DNA of 64,000 nucleotides, taken from NCBI GenBank assembly GCA_030019215.1, contig JASEEZ010000001.1, positions 84,211 through 148,210 on the forward strand, in the 5' to 3' direction. Every line of letters begins with the position of its first letter. Positions within the stretch are counted from its first letter, which is position 1. The stretch comes from Actinomycetota bacterium (GTDB lineage: Bacteria > Actinomycetota > Aquicultoria > Subteraquimicrobiales > UBA9087). The notes under the pieces are model-generated. The model made no database searches and was not told where the DNA came from. It saw nothing but the letters and a program-made list of their open reading frames with translations. Shown here in pieces: positions 12,781-60,567 of this stretch. The translations under genes were made by a program, and so were the position numbers.

Positions 12781-13032
12781 TCACTCCGAAGAAATGGTCA
12801 CCGATTCTTCCCGGGAAAGCCTGTTCACTTCGCCCAAGATGCTCTCCAAGGAAGAGATCACCCCAGCAACGTCCTCCTGTGCCTTCTTGAGTTCCTCAGA
12901 AAGAAACTCTGAACCGAGGTGCCCGGTCACGTGCTCCCATTGCTCCAGGCTTTTTCCGTAGAGCCTCCCCTGTTCAATTAGCTGGTGGATGGAGATCTTC
13001 AGTTGAGAGTAGTTAACCCCATGTGTACACAA
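12781..13032 (-). CDS. Hypothetical helical protein
   Basis: 83-aa ORF with GAGGAGG RBS and upstream promoter; no recognised motif. Confidence 0.65.
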   Translation of the reverse strand: MCTHGVNYSQLKISIHQLIEQGRLYGKSLEQWEHVTGHLGSEFLSEELKKAQEDVAGVISSLESILGEVNRLSREESVTISSE

Positions 13033-13065
13033 ACCCTTCGCCCTCCTCTCGCACCGACTACTGAA

Positions 13066-13094
13066 ATTCTACATCCCTGCCATCCATCCTGCAA
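13066..13094 (-). promoter_or_regulatory. sigma70-type promoter
   Basis: TTGCAG-N17-TAGAAT. Confidence 0.55.
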
Positions 13095-13109
13095 ATATCA
13101 GACGACCAT

Positions 13110-13137
13110 TAAAGTTTCTTTAATTTCTTGCCGATAA
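13110..13137 (+). promoter_or_regulatory. sigma28-family (FliA/SigD/WhiG) promoter
   Basis: TAAA-N16-GCCGATAA just upstream of the riboswitch. Confidence 0.8.
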
Positions 13138-13148
13138 TGAAATTGAAG

Positions 13149-13273
13149 ACCCCTGATAAAGGCAAACTCCGAGAAATCGGGGGACGCAAAGCCGCGGGCC
13201 TAAAGTCGCCGCAAGCCCCCGACGCTGTCGGGGGAGGGGCAGGGTGAATATGGCAGCCAGGTTGCCGGGGGGT
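13149..13273 (+). ncRNA. c-di-GMP-I (GEMM) riboswitch
   Basis: GGCAAAC..GAAA..GGGACGCAAAGCC.CGG.CCTAA....ATGGCAGCC.GGTTGCC; G at the G20-equivalent position (c-di-GMP rather than c-AMP-GMP). Confidence 0.92.
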
Positions 13274-13285
13274 GAAAGATGCAAT

Positions 13286-13332
13286 TGGCCCTTTCAACCG
13301 GCAATCAAAGCAGGTTGGAAGGGCCAGTTTTT
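13286..13332 (+). terminator. Riboswitch expression-platform terminator
   Basis: TGGCCCTTTCAACC...GGTTGGAAGGGCCA followed by GTTTTT. Confidence 0.8.
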
Positions 13333-13343
13333 AAGGAGAGGAA

Positions 13344-13529
13344 ATGAGCGAGGAAACCAAAAGGGGCCGTAGGATGTGTAAGAAAATAAACTGCGAGTTC
13401 TTGAGCGCCAGTGGTTTCTTCTGTCTCAAGGGTGTACCGGCGAGGAGATGCTTGAGACTAAAAACTAAAGGGGAAAGCATCGACTTCAGGAAACTGGGTA
13501 AGATCAAAGAAAAAGAAGACTGGATCTAA
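13344..13529 (+). CDS. Small Cys-rich basic protein of unknown function
   Basis: AAGGAG RBS, directly behind the riboswitch; C-x4-C-x9-C-x8-C. Confidence 0.7.
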   Translation: MSEETKRGRRMCKKINCEFLSASGFFCLKGVPARRCLRLKTKGESIDFRKLGKIKEKEDWI

Positions 13530-16513
13530 TTTACCTTTTGCTTCGCCTGCCCAGAACGCCTCCTTGTGCTCTTGGATGGCTCAACCATCAGACCAGCTTC
13601 CTTGAATCTCTTTCCAAATTGAGGTTTCTCCAGAACTTCACAAAAGGCTTCTACGACCTTGGGATCAAACTGGGAACCGGCATTCCTCTTCAACTCCCCG
13701 ACGGCTTCAGTAAAGCTCAAGGCAGAGTGATAGGGCCTCTCCGAGATCATGGCATCAAAGGCATCGGCAACCGCCAATATTCTGGCCCCCAGGGGAATCT
13801 CCTCTCCCGCCAACCCATCCAGATAACCATTTCCATCGTAGCGCTCGTGATGGTGGGCGATGATGGGAATTACATCGGCCAAAAGTGGAATCTGCTCCAC
13901 TATTTTAGTGGCAATCAAGGGGTGCATCTTGACTATCCGATATTCCTCATCGGTCAGACTGGTGGTCTTGTTCAGGATTTCCTCCTTTACCCCTATCTTC
14001 CCCACATCATGCAGGAGGGCAGCCGTGCGGATGTCTTCCATATCCCTGCCTGAGAGACCCAACCTTTCGGCCATGGCCAAGGAGAAACTGGTAACCCTCT
14101 CAGAGTGACCACGGGTGTAGGGATCCTTGGCCTCAATGGCGGCCACAAAGGCTTTCACGGTCGCCAGGTATAACTCCTCCAATTGAGTAAACAACCGAGC
14201 GTTGTGGATGGCGATGGCAGCCTGGCCGGCCACTGTGGAAATTATCCTCAAATCACCCTCGGTGAACATATGAGGACAGACGGCTCCCACATTGAGGACA
14301 CCGATCACCATACCCTTAACCTTCAAGGGAACACACAGAGCGGAGCAGATATCCTCCCTTTTCCTCACACCCTTAAACCTCGGATCCTTAGATATGTCCG
14401 AAATAAGAAGGGGCTCTCCCTTCTCGGCAGCCAAGCCAGCTATCCCCTCCCCGAGCTTCAGCCGAGTTTGTTTGATAGCTTCCTCGCTCAAACCAGCCGC
14501 GGCCTCAATGGTGAGTTCTCCCTTCTCCTCGTCCAGGAGCATGATGGAAGCCTTATCGCCCCCGAGCATATCCAGACTCAGATGCAAGATGAGATCCAGA
14601 AGGGATTTTATCTCGAGTGTGCCACCCAGGGCCTTGCTCATCTCATAGATCGAACGGAACTCCACCGCTGCCCGTTTGGCATCGACGTAAAGTTGAGAGT
14701 TCTCGATGGCCACCGCCACCTCATCGGCTACGGCAGAAAGCAGGGAAATCTCCTCGGTAGTCCAGGGATGAGGTCTTTGCGTGCCCAGGACAAGGACGCC
14801 AACAACTTCGCCCTTGGTCATCAAGGGAAGGACAACCTGATTTTTAAGTTCGGGTTTTCTTGCAATTACGCCGCAGAGTCCCGCCTCACAGGAGGAACCC
14901 TCGGCCGTCGTCGGCCTGCATTCCAAGAGGGCTTGACCGCAGAAGCTCTCCCCTATTCCTATCTCCACATCCTGGACGGATCTTTCATCCAGACCGCAAA
15001 CGACAGCTGGCTTCAGTTTTATGCCTTTAAACAGGGGGCACCTGGCACAACAGGCCCTGATTTTATCCTCGATTTTTTCATGGACCTCATCGCGGCAGAT
15101 GGTTCCGGGGATTGCCCAGCACTCCAGATTATCGGAGCCGTAAGCGGGACACTCCTTTTTTCCGCATTTCATAAACTCCCAGCACTTCACCAGCTCCCTC
15201 ATATCCAGAAGAAAAAATCCACCAGCCTGGGCCTTGATGAGGGGAAGAACCGTATCGAGTATCTTTTTGAGCAGTTCCTCCAGCTCAAGAGTGGAGCTGA
15301 CGACCTTTGACACCTCAAACAGGGTCGTGAGCTCCTTAACCCTGTGCCTTATCTCCTCCGTCCTTTCTCCCACCTTCTGTTCTAAGGTCTTGCCCCACTC
15401 CTCCAGCTCCTCCTTCGACCTCTTCAAGCTCTCGCTCATCCGGTTGAACTCTTCCGCCAGCTCCTCAAGTTCGTCACCGGTCTTGACCTCTATTCTATGC
15501 TCCAGATCCCCTTTCTCGATTATTTCCGCCCCCTCGTAAAGGACCTCAATTGGTTTTGCAATCCGGCGAGCATAATAAATGCCCATGAACAAGGCCACCG
15601 CCAAGGTCGCCAGAAGCAAGCCCAAAGTGCGCAACCTCATCTGGTTGAGGGAGGCGTAGGCCTCGGCCGTCGGCTGCTCGACGATGATGCCCCATCCCAG
15701 CTCCTCCACAATCAGATGACTGCCGACCACGGACTCACCGCTCTCGCTGAGATACTCCTTGTAAAGGGTGTCCGACTTCCCGGCCCGAATCTCCCCGACG
15801 TGGGGATTGTCTATGATCGTTTCCTTTAAAACCAGGGAGACATCCGGGTGAGCGACGATCCTGCCTCCCTTGTCCACCACATAGACATAACCGCTCTCCC
15901 CAACCCTTAAATCGGAGACCAGGTCCCACAGGGGCTTCAAGTGGACTTCCGCTGAGAGTACTCCCATTATCTCCTTCTCGGTTAACCTCACGGGGACGGC
16001 TATGGTCAAACAGGGCTCAGCCGATTCCGATATCCAAACGGGGCTTACATAATTTTTTCCCTTGATGGCGGTGGTGAACTCATCCGCACCCGCTCGGTCA
16101 CGCAAATCCTCCGGGGTGATCAACCGATAGCGAGAAATTTTGATTTTTTCCCTACCAACCTCATCGATCAGAGAAAGCTCGATGATGTTCTCATAGCTCT
16201 TGGGGAGTTTCTCCAGGATGACCCTCTGGCGCTCCTCGTCTCCCTCCAGGAAGCCCTTTGTCTGGGTTGAGCTGGCCAAAGCCTTCGCTATACATCCCAC
16301 GATGTGGTCAGCCTCGCCGGCTACTCTGTTGGCCACCTCCAGCTGTATGCTTTTGATGTCCCTTCGAAGCACATTCTGGCTCGTTTGGATGAACAAGAGC
16401 CCGGCCACGGACAGCGGAACAGCCGCCAAAAGGAGGATCAATAGAAGTAACTTCCTCCCTATTCTGCTCCGCCTCCACAACGCAGGTTTTAGAATTTCGC
16501 CCCTCTCCGTCAT
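13526..16513 (-). CDS. Membrane c-di-GMP phosphodiesterase-like sensor: dCache-HAMP-GAF (with two-CW Cys-rich insert)-GAF-HD-GYP
   Basis: Two TM around a Cache domain, HAMP (GDLEHRI..GDELEELA), CWEFMKC..CPAY..CW..GTIC, KDPYTRGHSERV, LLHDVGKIG, HHERYDGNGYL. Confidence 0.9.
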   Translation of the reverse strand: MTERGEILKPALWRRSRIGRKLLLLILLLAAVPLSVAGLLFIQTSQNVLRRDIKSIQLEVANRVAGEADHIVGCIAKALASSTQTKGFLEGDEERQRVILEKLPKSYENIIELSLIDEVGREKIKISRYRLITPEDLRDRAGADEFTTAIKGKNYVSPVWISESAEPCLTIAVPVRLTEKEIMGVLSAEVHLKPLWDLVSDLRVGESGYVYVVDKGGRIVAHPDVSLVLKETIIDNPHVGEIRAGKSDTLYKEYLSESGESVVGSHLIVEELGWGIIVEQPTAEAYASLNQMRLRTLGLLLATLAVALFMGIYYARRIAKPIEVLYEGAEIIEKGDLEHRIEVKTGDELEELAEEFNRMSESLKRSKEELEEWGKTLEQKVGERTEEIRHRVKELTTLFEVSKVVSSTLELEELLKKILDTVLPLIKAQAGGFFLLDMRELVKCWEFMKCGKKECPAYGSDNLECWAIPGTICRDEVHEKIEDKIRACCARCPLFKGIKLKPAVVCGLDERSVQDVEIGIGESFCGQALLECRPTTAEGSSCEAGLCGVIARKPELKNQVVLPLMTKGEVVGVLVLGTQRPHPWTTEEISLLSAVADEVAVAIENSQLYVDAKRAAVEFRSIYEMSKALGGTLEIKSLLDLILHLSLDMLGGDKASIMLLDEEKGELTIEAAAGLSEEAIKQTRLKLGEGIAGLAAEKGEPLLISDISKDPRFKGVRKREDICSALCVPLKVKGMVIGVLNVGAVCPHMFTEGDLRIISTVAGQAAIAIHNARLFTQLEELYLATVKAFVAAIEAKDPYTRGHSERVTSFSLAMAERLGLSGRDMEDIRTAALLHDVGKIGVKEEILNKTTSLTDEEYRIVKMHPLIATKIVEQIPLLADVIPIIAHHHERYDGNGYLDGLAGEEIPLGARILAVADAFDAMISERPYHSALSFTEAVGELKRNAGSQFDPKVVEAFCEVLEKPQFGKRFKEAGLMVEPSKSTRRRSGQAKQKVN

Positions 16514-16525
16514 CTTCCCATCCTA

Positions 16526-17509
16526 TCAGTCAATGAGCCTATCGGCTCTGGCCACAACCTCCATGGGCAGATCCAAACCTATTTCCTCGGCGGTTTTAAG
16601 ATTTATAACGAATCTTATCTTCTCCGGATTCTCTATGGGGATATCCGTGGGCTCCGTCCCCTCGAGCACCTTCTTGGCCAGCCTGGCCGATTGCTTCCCC
16701 GACTCGTAATAGTTCGCTCCGTAGCCGGCCAGGGCACCTGCCTCCACCGCCTCCTCCATAGAGGTCATCAAGGGAAGGCGCTCCCTCCTCGCCGCCTCTA
16801 TCAGCAACCGGTTGTTGCTCATGCTCAAAACATCGCAGACCATGAAGATGGCATCGACTTCCTCCTTTTTGACCAGCTTAAGAACCTCCTTAAGCTCGGC
16901 GATGTTTCGAGCTCGTGCCTCCTTCAACTGCAAGCCAAGTTCTTCCGCCGCCTCCCTAGCTTGCTTTATGGCAAGCATAGCAGCTTTATCCCTGGGATTG
17001 TACACGATGTAAACCTTCTCGATACTGGGCTTCATCTCCTTCAGCAACTGCAAACGCTTTCCCGTGAGCTCCAAAGCCATATTGATGACCCCGGTGATGT
17101 TGTTGCCCGAACTCCGTCTGCTCTTGACCAGCCCTGTGCTCACCGGATCGCAGAGAGTCATGAAGACGATTGGCGTATCCTCGGCGATCTCGGCTACGGC
17201 CTTCGTTCCCCTCACAGAAACCGTGCAGATGCAGTCCACCTCTTCCTCGACGAGCTCCCGAGTAAAGCTCCTCAAAGCGTTGTAGTCCCCTTTGACGTTT
17301 TTGACCTTGTAGGTTACGTTCTCTCCCTCCACGTAGCCGAGGGAGATGAGCCCATCCTTCAGGCCATCCACGGTCGGAAGGGAAGCATCTCCCAAGATTA
17401 CGGCCCCCACCTTATAAACCTTCTTCTCCTCAGCCATCCGAGCACAGCCGGCCATGCTCGGCACCAATAGGCCGAGGAAGATTAAAAAGACCAACGCTCT
17501 CTTAAACAC
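16526..17509 (-). CDS. ABC-type substrate-binding lipoprotein (ABC_sub_bind family), no permease adjacent
   Basis: Lipobox MAGC; PIVF..DPV..GLV.S...GNNITG, INLKTA..IGL. Confidence 0.88.
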   Translation of the reverse strand: MFKRALVFLIFLGLLVPSMAGCARMAEEKKVYKVGAVILGDASLPTVDGLKDGLISLGYVEGENVTYKVKNVKGDYNALRSFTRELVEEEVDCICTVSVRGTKAVAEIAEDTPIVFMTLCDPVSTGLVKSRRSSGNNITGVINMALELTGKRLQLLKEMKPSIEKVYIVYNPRDKAAMLAIKQAREAAEELGLQLKEARARNIAELKEVLKLVKKEEVDAIFMVCDVLSMSNNRLLIEAARRERLPLMTSMEEAVEAGALAGYGANYYESGKQSARLAKKVLEGTEPTDIPIENPEKIRFVINLKTAEEIGLDLPMEVVARADRLID

Positions 17510-17542
17510 AAGGCGCCCCTCCTTAAAGTCAATCCCCTTTAT

Positions 17543-17570
17543 TTATCGGCAGTTGAGCTCGAAAGCTTTA
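17543..17570 (-). promoter_or_regulatory. sigma28-family promoter for the SBP/HD-GYP operon
   Basis: TAAA-N16-GCCGATAA on the minus strand. Confidence 0.8.
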
Positions 17571-17643
17571 AAATTTCCAGGATTTTTCCCAAAAAATGGG
17601 TAGAAGTTTAACGCAGAGCCCCAAAATATGGTATCTTGGTGCT

Positions 17644-17997
17644 ATGATCAAGGAGATTTTCTTTCCCGTGATAGAAGAAGCGATCTCCATTCTGGAGGTG
17701 CTCGGCCTAGTCGTCATCGTCTACGGCTCCGCCATGGCCATAGTCCAGTTCGTCAGGAATCTGGGCCGAGCCGAAAATGGGGTCGCCCGATATCTTACAA
17801 GGTATCTGACCTTAGGCCTAGAATTCCTCGTCGGAGCGGAAATTTTGAGGACGGTCGTCGTCCGCACCTTTGATGAGCTGATCAAGCTCGGAGCGATCAT
17901 CGCCCTCAGGGGTCTTCTGGGCTTCATCATTCAAAGGGAAAGGGAGACCAGGCCGGGGTTAACGGAGCCAAATCAAGAAATTCCCAAAACGGGTTGA
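17644..17997 (+). CDS. DUF1622-like membrane protein
   Basis: LTLGLEFLVGAEILRTV..T.DEL..LGAII.LR; probable ATG at 17644. Confidence 0.8.
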   Translation: MIKEIFFPVIEEAISILEVLGLVVIVYGSAMAIVQFVRNLGRAENGVARYLTRYLTLGLEFLVGAEILRTVVVRTFDELIKLGAIIALRGLLGFIIQRERETRPGLTEPNQEIPKTG

Positions 17998-30446: not shown

Positions 30447-30474
30447 TCAACCAAATAGCTCAAAATGCCGATAA
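30447..30474 (+). promoter_or_regulatory. sigma28-family promoter
   Basis: TCAA-N16-GCCGATAA. Confidence 0.6.
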
Positions 30475-30643
30475 GATTAATGGAAGGAAATCCGAGAGTT
30501 TTGGCGAAGTAAAAAGTGACCCGAGAATTTGAGCCGACTCCGCCGAGAAGATCTCGGAAAAGTTACCGCAGGCCATTAATCTCGGGTCTTTTTTTGCCGG
30601 CAGTAAATAGCCGCCAGCTATCTGCCATCAGCCATCAGCTAAA

Positions 30644-37384: not shown

Positions 37385-37393
37385 CGCCGGTTA

Positions 37394-37548
37394 ACTTTCT
37401 CCCATCCAGACTATACTGTCGGCTCTGGAACTTTCCCAGATCAACCCCCGACACGTCGGGGGCTCGCGGACTTTTCCTCGACTAATTCGGGATTCACCGC
37501 CGGTCAGGAATTCCCCCGATATATCGGGGGTCACCTTGCCCCGAAAGT
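37394..37548 (-). ncRNA. FMN riboswitch with an 18-bp palindrome inserted in the P2 loop
   Basis: TTCGGGGCAAGGTGA[..]AATTCCTGACCGGCGGT..AGTCCGCGAG..GATCTGG..TTCCAGAGCCGACAGTATAGTCTGGATGGGAGAA. Confidence 0.93.
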
Positions 37549-37616
37549 TTCTCTATGCTTTTATGTTGTTTTATTTTAGCAAAATCCCCCAGGCTAAGCA
37601 ACCATACCAAAAGCAG

Positions 37617-47271: not shown

Positions 47272-47489
47272 CTCTCATCTCCCAGAAATTCTCTGCAGGA
47301 ATTGGCACCTTGTAAAAACAGTCAATGCCCATCCGCCTAAAGCAGACTGCGAAATCAATCAACCGCTCGCTCAATGGTCAAAAGTCAATTATTTCCCTTT
47401 TGACCAAGCTGGAGGCTGATTAACTCTTGACTGATTTACAGGTTGCCGAGGCTTCATCGGGCCAGTCCCTCCACCTCTCCAGATAAGAG
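47272..47489 (-). ncRNA. SAM-I riboswitch with enlarged P3
   Basis: CTCTTATC..GAGAGGTGGAGGGACTGGCCCGATGAAGCC.CGGCAACC...GGTGCCAATTCC...GATGAGAG upstream of metK. Confidence 0.94.
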
Positions 47490-60458: not shown

Positions 60459-60469
60459 TCCCCATGCAT

Positions 60470-60562
60470 AAAAAAACGCCTCCTACGAGACGGCAAGAGG
60501 CATTTTGGTTTCGCATATTCTTTTCACTCTCCTTGCTAGCCTCACAGGACTAGACTTAAAGG
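60470..60562 (-). promoter_or_regulatory. PyrR-binding attenuator
   Basis: TTTAA..TAGTCCTGTGAGGCTAG binding loop, then terminator GCCTCTTG..TAGGAGGC-GTTTTTTT. Confidence 0.88.
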
Positions 60563-60567
60563 TTTTT

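Follow-up and report, generated by a model that had tools for sequence, protein, structure and literature searches.

WhiG-type promoters, a predicted HD-GYP phosphodiesterase and a c-di-GMP-I riboswitch in a deep-branching actinobacterium

Why would a gene for a predicted phosphodiesterase (PDE) of cyclic diguanylate (c-di-GMP) and a riboswitch for the same second messenger stand tail to tail in a deep-branching, non-flagellate actinobacterium, each behind what resembles a promoter of the sigma-28 family? The locus that raises this question lies at 13110-17570 of a 64-kb stretch of DNA (64,000 nucleotides, G000:C11:84211-148210; hereafter the window). A first-pass annotation had described two convergent units here, a substrate-binding protein (SBP) gene followed by an HD-GYP sensor gene on the minus strand and a riboswitch followed by a small open reading frame (ORF) on the plus strand, and had proposed that transcription of the PDE by the sigma factor WhiG would form a positive feedback loop. 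The genome (G000) comprises 1,627,767 bases in 52 contigs and is rated 94.4% complete; among named organisms, Candidatus Subteraquimicrobium carltonvillense (class Ca. Aquicultoria, Actinomycetota) has the WhiG nearest to its own (68% identity), and the four DNA runs with window 13000-17700 are groundwater metagenomes from one study. The explanation that we favour, with moderate confidence, is that the window holds two WhiG target promoters within a c-di-GMP-gated scheme of two layers. Gene calls throughout are greedy ORF calls made for this analysis, and the same calls define non-coding DNA. Counts for the class come from a sample of 41 genomes that includes G000 and counts for the phylum from a wider sample, kin genomes in them not being independent; G001 is a genome of the same genus and G002 one of another family in the class.

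The motif TAAA-N16-GCCGATAA was observed exactly twice in the window, at the two positions given in the first-pass annotation, against an expectation of 0.02 from 100 dinucleotide-preserving shuffles, none of which had two or more. The plus-strand site (TAAAGTTTCTTTAATTTCTTGCCGATAA, 13110-13137, +) is an exact match with its -35 element at 13110-13113 and its -10 element at 13130-13137; read directly from the sequence it has an extended -35, TAAAGTTT-N12-GCCGATAA. Its -10 element ends 13 nucleotides (nt) before the riboswitch aptamer, and transcription is predicted to start at about 13144-13146, 5-7 nt ahead of the aptamer. The minus-strand site (TAAAGCTTTCGAGCTCAACTGCCGATAA, 17543-17570, -) is likewise exact, and its -10 element ends 33 nt before the SBP start codon. 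At the level of sequence, both sites meet the sigma-28 (FliA/SigD/WhiG) promoter pattern, TAAA and GCCGATAA spaced 15-16 nt apart.

A scan of the whole genome for the motif gave 5 exact matches with a spacer of 15 or 16, against 1 for the reversed pattern. When one mismatch was allowed and the CGA core was held fixed, non-coding sites peaked sharply at spacers 15 (8 sites) and 16 (12 sites), the other twenty spacers from 6 to 27 giving 0-5 sites each (mean 1.5), and the motif recurs upstream of HD-GYP homologues in other families of the class. The low expectation in the window and this spacer-specific excess argue against the two motifs being chance matches or parts of housekeeping promoters, as do the class-wide conservation of the extended -35, the retention of the sites at orthologous places in G001 (where the plus-strand promoter has one change, TAAAGTTT...GTCGATAA) and G002, and the finding that neither promoter has a sigma-70-like site in the proper orientation. 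We consider such an origin very improbable.

Another of the five exact matches, at G000:C22:55256-55283 (-), falls within the coding sequence of a PAS-GGDEF protein: the conserved A-D-K in the C-terminal helix of its GGDEF domain is encoded there by GCCGATAAA. This match is probably incidental, and it calls for care when motifs are scanned for without restriction to intergenic DNA.

Is there a sigma factor that could use such promoters? One protein of the genome scores above the cut-off for the FliA/WhiG subfamily (TIGR02479, 280 bits vs 189.6), and it also passes the NCBI WhiG equivalog NF004935 (373.8 bits vs a cut-off of 343). Its gene lies in the order xerC-whiG-rpsB-tsf, with the XerC/D-type recombinase gene on one side. 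FlgM, flagellin and FlhA (FHIPEP) had no match in this 94%-complete genome, and a flagellar role, or a motility regulon, was dropped for that reason. A homologue of RsiG was found: a helical, single-motif protein of 96 amino acids (aa) at G000:C22:87631-87921, with the motif E38-x3-S42-x2-R45-x3-H49-x3-D53. A strict search of the ORFs with E-x3-S-x2-R-x3-Q-x3-D had returned only a spurious ORF, and the homologue surfaced at one mismatch. The His in place of Gln is frequent in RsiG, and the Conexibacter RsiG with this variant is described as binding c-di-GMP (PMC8325347). The sigma factor and anti-sigma factor sought by the first-pass annotation are thus both represented in the genome, and by sequence WhiG is of the RsiG-controlled kind, with no flagellar cluster beside it.

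At high c-di-GMP, an (RsiG)2-(c-di-GMP)2 complex holds WhiG in Streptomyces and in Rubrobacter. With the 96-aa protein as a single query, the matches in the PDB below E = 0.01 were RsiG chains only: the Streptomyces venezuelae chain 6pfj_T at 6e-8, and the single-motif protein of Rubrobacter radiotolerans (7lq2/3/4) at about 8e-6. A profile of 25 RsiG homologues improved these values to 1.6e-13 and about 1e-11 and matched both repeats of the Streptomyces protein. A predicted complex of WhiG with two RsiG and two c-di-GMP scored 0.54 (runs 0.54, 0.55 and 0.50, the best of three controls 0.02), a score which may be memory, a like complex (7lq4) having been solved, and which lies in a range, 0.60 or under, that holds only 7 of 80 solved complexes and both of the mismatched pairs that pass, so that such marks are more often wrong unless the complex was likely beforehand. 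The mark itself is reached by 58 of those 80 solved complexes and by 2 of 110 mismatched pairs; the runs share at least 60% of contacts, and the predicted local distance difference test (pLDDT) of the partner is at least 67.

The weak support that this prediction gives, with its possible memory of 7lq4, together with the fact that no NCBIfam model names the 96-aa protein, would suit an explanation in which the promoters are WhiG-dependent but the RsiG-like protein binds neither ligand nor sigma factor, leaving the PDE and the riboswitch as plain outputs of a pilus/autolysin sigma-28 regulon that closes no loop. We regard this as quite improbable: none of the five motif residues varies among 25 aligned homologues, the profile matches RsiG chains alone in the PDB, and in the class RsiG goes together with WhiG, 38 of the 41 genomes having the one and 38 the other (WhiG over the equivalog cut-off in 32). 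All 30 RsiG loci examined have the His variant of the motif, and most of the class homologues are single-motif proteins of 84-114 aa.

Among the RsiG homologues of the class, three genomes (G014:C1:92900-93900, G035:C143 and G023:C45) have longer frames, of 176-185 aa, in which the motif is complete twice (EKRLSQKRHFLHQKID and EAKISYKRRLIHGKID, for instance), and two further loci (L248, L249) combine one intact motif with a first repeat that has decayed. One deep class therefore contains both single- and twin-motif forms. The 2021 study describes single-motif RsiG in Rubrobacteria and Thermoleophilia only (PMC8325347).

What would WhiG transcribe at this locus? The minus-strand unit is an operon of two genes, 12 nt apart, of which the upstream one encodes an SBP of family PF04392 (16526-17509, -; Pfam 211.6 bits, cut-off 25.9), a lipoprotein whose signal peptide ends in MAGC. 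It scores 180.4 bits against the TrpX model, below the cut-off of 390. There is no permease or ATPase gene in the operon, the flanking genes being of the DUF1622 and LppM-like types, and for this reason we read the SBP as probably a co-sensor of the dCache protein encoded next to it. This protein (13526-16513, -) is a predicted membrane sensor PDE of 995 aa with dCache_1, HAMP, two GAF and HD_5 (PF13487, 151.9 bits) domains in Pfam. Its translation contains the motifs LHDVGK, HHHERYDG and ADAFDAM, in which the HD, HHHE and DAFD residues are presumably metal ligands. The domain is, by sequence, of HD-GYP type (HD_5), and PDE activity is the function expected of it. The Pfam and RF01051 matches bear out the convergent layout of the first-pass annotation; the stop codons of the two units overlap by 4 bases, and the arrangement is kept in G001, whose contig ends inside the PDE gene.

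Between the HAMP and GAF domains the 995-aa protein also has a near-threshold match to an NCBIfam two-CW cysteine-rich domain (32.5 bits, cut-off 35). The stretch concerned, CWEFMKCGKKECP...CWAIPGTIC...CCARCP, covers residues ~443-540 (window 14900-15150, -) and may be a metal or redox sensor within the phosphodiesterase.

The association of the motif with HD-GYP genes extends beyond the window. In G002, the gene for an orthologue of the 995-aa protein (48% identity over residues 13-968) is immediately preceded by TAAA-N15-GCCGATTA. We took the best HD-GYP homologue from each of 30 class genomes and dropped ten loci in which the frame ran off the fetched DNA; among the 20 that could be tested, an upstream motif was present with at most one mismatch in 8 and at most two in 10, against 0/20 for a reverse-complement control. 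The window locus itself counts as a miss in this tally because its promoter precedes the SBP gene. G024, one of the dropped loci, has TTAAG-N15-GCCGATAA about 90 nt before the frame start, as was seen once more DNA was fetched. Pairing of an SBP with the HD-GYP protein was rejected as a conserved trait: tblastn found no SBP in the stretches upstream of four homologous HD-GYP genes, nor any homologue of the N-terminal 320 residues of the PDE.

For its 1.63 Mb the genome has a rich c-di-GMP inventory, with 9 GGDEF matches (8 above cut-off), 8 HD_5, 1 EAL and 3 c-di-GMP-I aptamers. At no more than one mismatch the motif was found at 3 of the 8 HD-GYP and 1 of the 9 GGDEF matches, and not at the gene of the single EAL protein. 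The predicted HD-GYP targets are the SBP-HD-GYP operon, a GAF-HD-GYP gene on contig C6 (exact motif) and another on C20 (TCAA...GCCGATAA). The three c-di-GMP-I leaders in the genome, with 0, 1 and 1 mismatches, are all predicted targets as well, the two outside the window preceding a pilin gene and the gene of a CAP-domain protein. Pilin-like genes are on the list too, in a cluster for type IV pili on contig C48 where three PilB/PilT-like ATPase genes also lie, and so are an NlpC/P60 hydrolase gene, an Amidase_3 gene and an RHS-repeat gene behind a leader with a terminator.

Other motif sites stand before units of a less familiar kind. Downstream of an exact motif at G000:C11:45192-45218 (-), outside the window, come a leader of about 130 nt that contains a terminator-like hairpin, an ORF of 139 aa that belongs to no family, and a 1090-aa RHS-repeat protein; an Rfam search of this locus returned no family at the gathering score. 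At window 30447-30600 (+), TCAA-N16-GCCGATAA precedes about 115 nt with no ORF and a hairpin with a T7 terminator, making this a candidate sigma-28-dependent small RNA, and a similar short unit follows TAAA-N15-GCCGATAT at G000:C3:21168-21194 (-).

The interpretation given in the first-pass annotation is partly supported, in that its sequence-level predictions, as far as they were open to testing, hold. In the proposed feedback, high c-di-GMP would most likely lead a homodimeric single-motif RsiG to sequester WhiG; as c-di-GMP falls, WhiG would be freed and both window units transcribed; and the HD-GYP phosphodiesterase, gated by signals from outside and inside the cell, would degrade c-di-GMP and free more WhiG, a conditional positive feedback. 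The locking-in of a low-c-di-GMP state, which the first-pass annotation had added, might follow from it. The idea of such feedback is already in print, for Rubrobacter (PMC8325347) and across the phylum (PMC13595943). We infer that WhiG uses these promoters, that RsiG binds c-di-GMP and that the enzyme is a PDE, and the same holds for the sign of the switch and the dynamics.

Several observations count against this account. The gene for RsiG itself carries TAAG-N15-GCCGATAA (one mismatch), in this genus only (2 of 30 loci), and one DUF4118-GAF-GGDEF gene carries a one-mismatch site, so that the wiring is not purely positive; the two genes could be opposing arms that reset the system. Autoregulation of rsiG as a conserved trait was rejected, both loci being of this genus. 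The GYP motif reads GYL in the 995-aa protein and in its G001 copy. The G002 locus has neither the SBP nor the convergent riboswitch, and outside the genus the module does not keep its composition. At one mismatch, the reversed pattern gave 15 non-coding matches against 18 for the true motif, which makes lone one-mismatch sites individually unsafe; this control was judged poor, AGC, the core fixed in it, being more frequent than CGA, and it gave way to the spacer control. RNA runs containing window 13000-17700 were looked for and none is listed.

How would c-di-GMP act on the plus-strand unit once it is transcribed? The unit opens with a c-di-GMP-I aptamer at 13151-13269 (+; RF01051, 66.8 bits against a gathering score of 35, E 6.7e-11, model 1-87 of 87), which carries a 36-nt insertion in its second hairpin. 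An intrinsic terminator is predicted at 13285-13332 (+), with a 15-bp stem (13285-13299 with 13313-13327), a 13-nt loop and T5 at 13328-13332. Its hairpin, of about -28 kcal/mol, is part of the full-length minimum-energy fold and is separated from the aptamer by a 17-nt gap, with no overlap. In the minimum-energy folds of transcripts ending at 13303-13316, a predicted antiterminator (13260-13306, +) is seen, in which GGTTGCCGGGGGGT (13260-13273), the 3' strand of the aptamer with its tail, pairs with GGCCC (13287-13291) and CCGGCAATC (13298-13306) in the 5' arm and loop of the terminator. The energy of this duplex is -23.4 kcal/mol; 200 shuffles of its partner average -15.0 (z -2.66, 2% reaching it). 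G001 keeps the aptamer, terminator and ORF along with the promoter, and its antiterminator has a z of -2.36, a T to C change in the loop turning a G-U into a G-C pair. In these predicted folds the expression platform is coupled to the aptamer by a terminator and a competing antiterminator. With ligand bound, the aptamer would hold its own 3' strand and the strong terminator would form; with ligand absent, this strand would pair with the 5' arm and loop of the terminator, and RNA polymerase would read into the ORF. A terminator separate from the aptamer, together with antiterminator complementarity, is the layout of an OFF switch, and on the folding models we think it reasonably probable that the window leader is one.

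Against an OFF switch it must be said that the call rests on thermodynamic folds, and that in G001 the orthologous aptamer was kept by cmscan under the variant family RF03167 (64.1 bits, gathering 59), for which we found no published statement of the ligand in the literature. Among the 28 class leaders with a detectable terminator, moreover, 5 have significant antiterminator complementarity (z < -1.64) and 5 have a terminator that overlaps the aptamer. A class-wide ON or OFF call was dropped, only those 5 of 28 terminator leaders having z < -1.64 and 19 of the 47 leaders having no terminator by the rule used.

The same WhiG-RsiG promoters could be combined with a riboswitch that is ON with ligand, in which case the small ORF and, elsewhere, the pilin would be expressed only in a band of c-di-GMP, low enough (micromolar) for WhiG and high enough (nanomolar) for the aptamer, a band-pass and not a double low-pass. 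The affinities given for the S. venezuelae RsiG-WhiG complex, 0.39 µM (PMC8325347), and for a c-di-GMP-I aptamer, about 1 nM (PMC3627812), leave room for such a window. Most class leaders, which have no significant OFF-type antiterminator, and the terminators that overlap the aptamer, as in ON designs, would also fit it. What speaks against an ON switch in the window is the position of the terminator, the complementarity of the aptamer 3' strand to its 5' arm and loop, and the folds, in which we found no linker pairing that would keep the terminator open when ligand is bound. Class I leaders before small-protein genes of Clostridioides difficile are, in addition, described as repressed by c-di-GMP through premature termination (PMC13724677). 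We consider an ON switch unlikely.

The ORF behind the leader (13344-13529, +) would encode a basic protein of 61 aa with 4 cysteines and is preceded by an AAGGAG ribosome-binding site 6 nt before its ATG. It matches no Pfam or NCBIfam family, and a protein atlas search produced no lead, its best score being 0.85 with recognition under the usual mark. Only 3 database proteins resemble it, all from this genus, and it is single-copy. Its G001 copy is 85% identical, with 15 base changes (5/3/7 by codon position); all four Cys are retained, two of them with synonymously changed codons. The 4 Cys are also present in a third variant, which has an in-frame deletion of 3 aa. A count of 4 synonymous and 9 non-synonymous codons between the window and G001 is only weakly coding-like; going by sequence, we consider that the ORF is probably, not securely, translated.

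That the ORF is confined to one genus and weakly constrained raises the alternative that the plus-strand unit acts mainly as RNA, the ORF being secondary: its terminated, WhiG-driven leader might be a c-di-GMP sponge that helps to strip RsiG of ligand, or its read-through might serve as an antisense brake on the HD-GYP gene once c-di-GMP is exhausted. The overlap of the two units at their stop codons and the retention of this layout in G001 would allow for the latter, there being no terminator above chance after the ORF, and a survey of antisense-acting riboswitches exists (PMC9943018). A precedent for a sponge has been proposed in Bdellovibrio, whose attack phase, with its FliA-dominated programme, features a massively expressed, ORF-less c-di-GMP riboswitch RNA (PMC3627812). 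The strong ribosome-binding site, the four cysteines kept in three variants and the in-frame deletion all favour a protein instead, and the two riboswitches elsewhere in the genome stand before ordinary genes, for the pilin and the CAP-domain protein. A primary role as RNA therefore seems to us as unlikely as an ON switch.

A small cysteine protein behind a sigma-28-type promoter was observed a second time, at G000:C11:28040-28330 (+), outside the window, where TAAAGTTT-N12-GCCGATAT lies 48 nt ahead of a small Cys-rich ORF (CPKCG...CRCG) of zinc-ribbon-like appearance.

Is the pairing of promoter and riboswitch in the window an isolated case? RF01051 matched 47 places in 28 of the 41 class genomes, 46 of them over the gathering score. 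When the best site was sought in the 100 nt upstream of each aptamer (N15-16, CGA fixed), 3, 15, 10 and 8 aptamers had sites with 0, 1, 2 and 3 mismatches, respectively, and the other 11 had worse sites or none. A sigma-28-type site with at most two mismatches thus stands before 28 of the 47, as compared with 0.19 of 47 in shuffles and with 12 of 605 upstream regions of G000 genes; the reverse complement gave 0/47 even at three mismatches. Positions that were not part of the search agree among the 28 sites, TAAA being followed by G in 22 and then by T at successive positions in 20, 17 and 21 of them. Twenty of the sites have a spacer of 15 and 8 a spacer of 16, and the end of the -10 element lies a median of 23.5 nt (12-68) from the aptamer. 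A type IV pilin gene lies downstream of 14 of the 47 aptamers, and those 14 leaders align with the promoter in register.

Outside the class, the aptamer was found in 65 of 151 sampled Actinomycetota genomes; this tally includes five genomes flagged as unpublished, on which nothing else stated here depends and one locus from which was left out. Of 22 aptamers outside the class, which are the best-scoring ones and not a random draw, 1 had a site with at most one mismatch, 9 had exactly two and 5 exactly three, the reverse-complement control giving none at two or fewer. Judged from sequence, the coupling of riboswitch and promoter seems to reach beyond the class in a looser form. A search of the literature on c-di-GMP riboswitches together with WhiG, SigD, sigma-28/FliA or actinobacterial pilin found no report of such coupling. 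As part of our best explanation, we take the window module, on balance, to be one case of a lineage-wide design in which c-di-GMP-I riboswitches stand behind WhiG-type promoters, most often before the major type IV pilin gene.

Under this explanation, riboswitch-gated genes would need low c-di-GMP twice, first to free WhiG and then, at a lower level still, to pass the leader. The wide gap between the affinities of 0.39 µM and about 1 nM means that two such sensors in series could order gene expression. It would be possible, more tentatively, to extend this to the deep-branching Actinomycetota and more loosely to the phylum, as a general arrangement in which c-di-GMP acts twice on one transcription unit, through RsiG-WhiG and through a riboswitch, giving a hierarchy of two thresholds with a possible sponge and antisense brake. 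Targets that have no riboswitch, such as the HD-GYP phosphodiesterases, would then fire first and pull c-di-GMP down, and the riboswitch-gated pilin, the secreted CAP protein and the small ORF would fire only once the pool had been cleared. Abundant terminated leaders with bound ligand may add an RNA sponge to the feedback, and read-through antisense to the PDE gene may then brake the PDE. We consider the whole of this extension rather doubtful.

To our knowledge, the RsiG-WhiG switch is the only known case of c-di-GMP arming an anti-sigma factor. In Pseudomonas putida, BifA is an EAL-type enzyme and the host is flagellate; we know of no evidence that the FliA of this organism is sequestered by c-di-GMP, and on that footing no direct loop closes there. 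Its likeness to the present locus is that the sigma-28 factor FliA drives a c-di-GMP phosphodiesterase (PMC5300878). The flgB leader of C. difficile also joins a c-di-GMP-I riboswitch and sigma-28 in one circuit, with the opposite wiring: a SigA promoter and the riboswitch control the operon that encodes sigma-28 (sigD), whereas here sigma-28 promoters drive riboswitches (PMC7438776). The class I leaders of C. difficile share with ours the c-di-GMP-I aptamer, premature termination and a small-protein gene (PMC13724677). The small proteins in question are repressed by c-di-GMP and push a developmental programme; they are membrane-associated and form a paralogous family, unlike the basic, Cys-rich, single-copy ORF of one genus described here, and the part of that report drawn on here mentions no sigma-28 promoter for their leaders (PMC13724677). 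Bdellovibrio shares a sigma-28-type consensus, TTAAG-N16-CCGATA, for a lifestyle programme that includes the highly expressed c-di-GMP-I RNA merRNA (PMC3627812). It differs in being a proteobacterium with FlgM-type logic and an ORF-less RNA, and a FliA promoter of merRNA itself is not stated in the portion of the source used (PMC3627812).

The closest parallel is R. radiotolerans, in which WhiG promoters have the form TAAA / GCCGATAA and, of 12 that were verified by start sites, 3 lie at type IV pilus and 5 at c-di-GMP turnover genes (PMC8325347). As in that non-sporulating, unicellular-type organism with a single-motif RsiG, the motif in our genome precedes pilin genes and 3 HD-GYP genes. Here the PDEs are of HD-GYP type, one being paired with an SBP, the lineage differs, the system is predicted from sequence, and the pilin and two other units have a c-di-GMP-I riboswitch between promoter and gene; neither 'riboswitch' nor 'HD-GYP' occurs in the main text of PMC8325347. 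Denis et al. (bioRxiv 10.64898/2026.01.14.699351; PMC13595943) used a motif search of the same kind as ours, which took in only genera represented by 2 or more members and only sites no further than 200 bp from a start codon, and report c-di-GMP metabolism as the most widespread predicted WhiG target (307 genes), stating regulatory feedback loops for genomes with only the RsiG-controlled WhiG2. The main text of that report nowhere uses the words 'riboswitch', 'HD-GYP' or 'Aquicultoria' (PMC13595943); its supplementary tables could list such genes.

The window contains three further regulatory RNAs, all on the minus strand: a SAM-I riboswitch at 47272-47489 (80.2 bits, with a 119-nt insertion in one hairpin), an FMN riboswitch at 37390-37552 (92.8 bits) and a PyrR binding site at 60469-60566 (55.4 against a gathering score of 54).

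The locus extends the RsiG-WhiG switch to a third deep lineage, uncultured groundwater actinobacteria with genomes of 1-3 Mb, and ties it to HD-GYP enzymes. It also shows a regular coupling of WhiG-type promoters to c-di-GMP-I riboswitches, which we have not found in print. The sigma factor, the anti-sigma factor, the promoters and the leaders are all short and defined, and about 30 natural promoter-riboswitch pairs are at hand for comparison. If the coupling works as proposed, the same genes would be subject to two sensors of one second messenger in series, the first a protein and the second an RNA, and nature would have in this a simple design for gene expression that is ultrasensitive or ordered.

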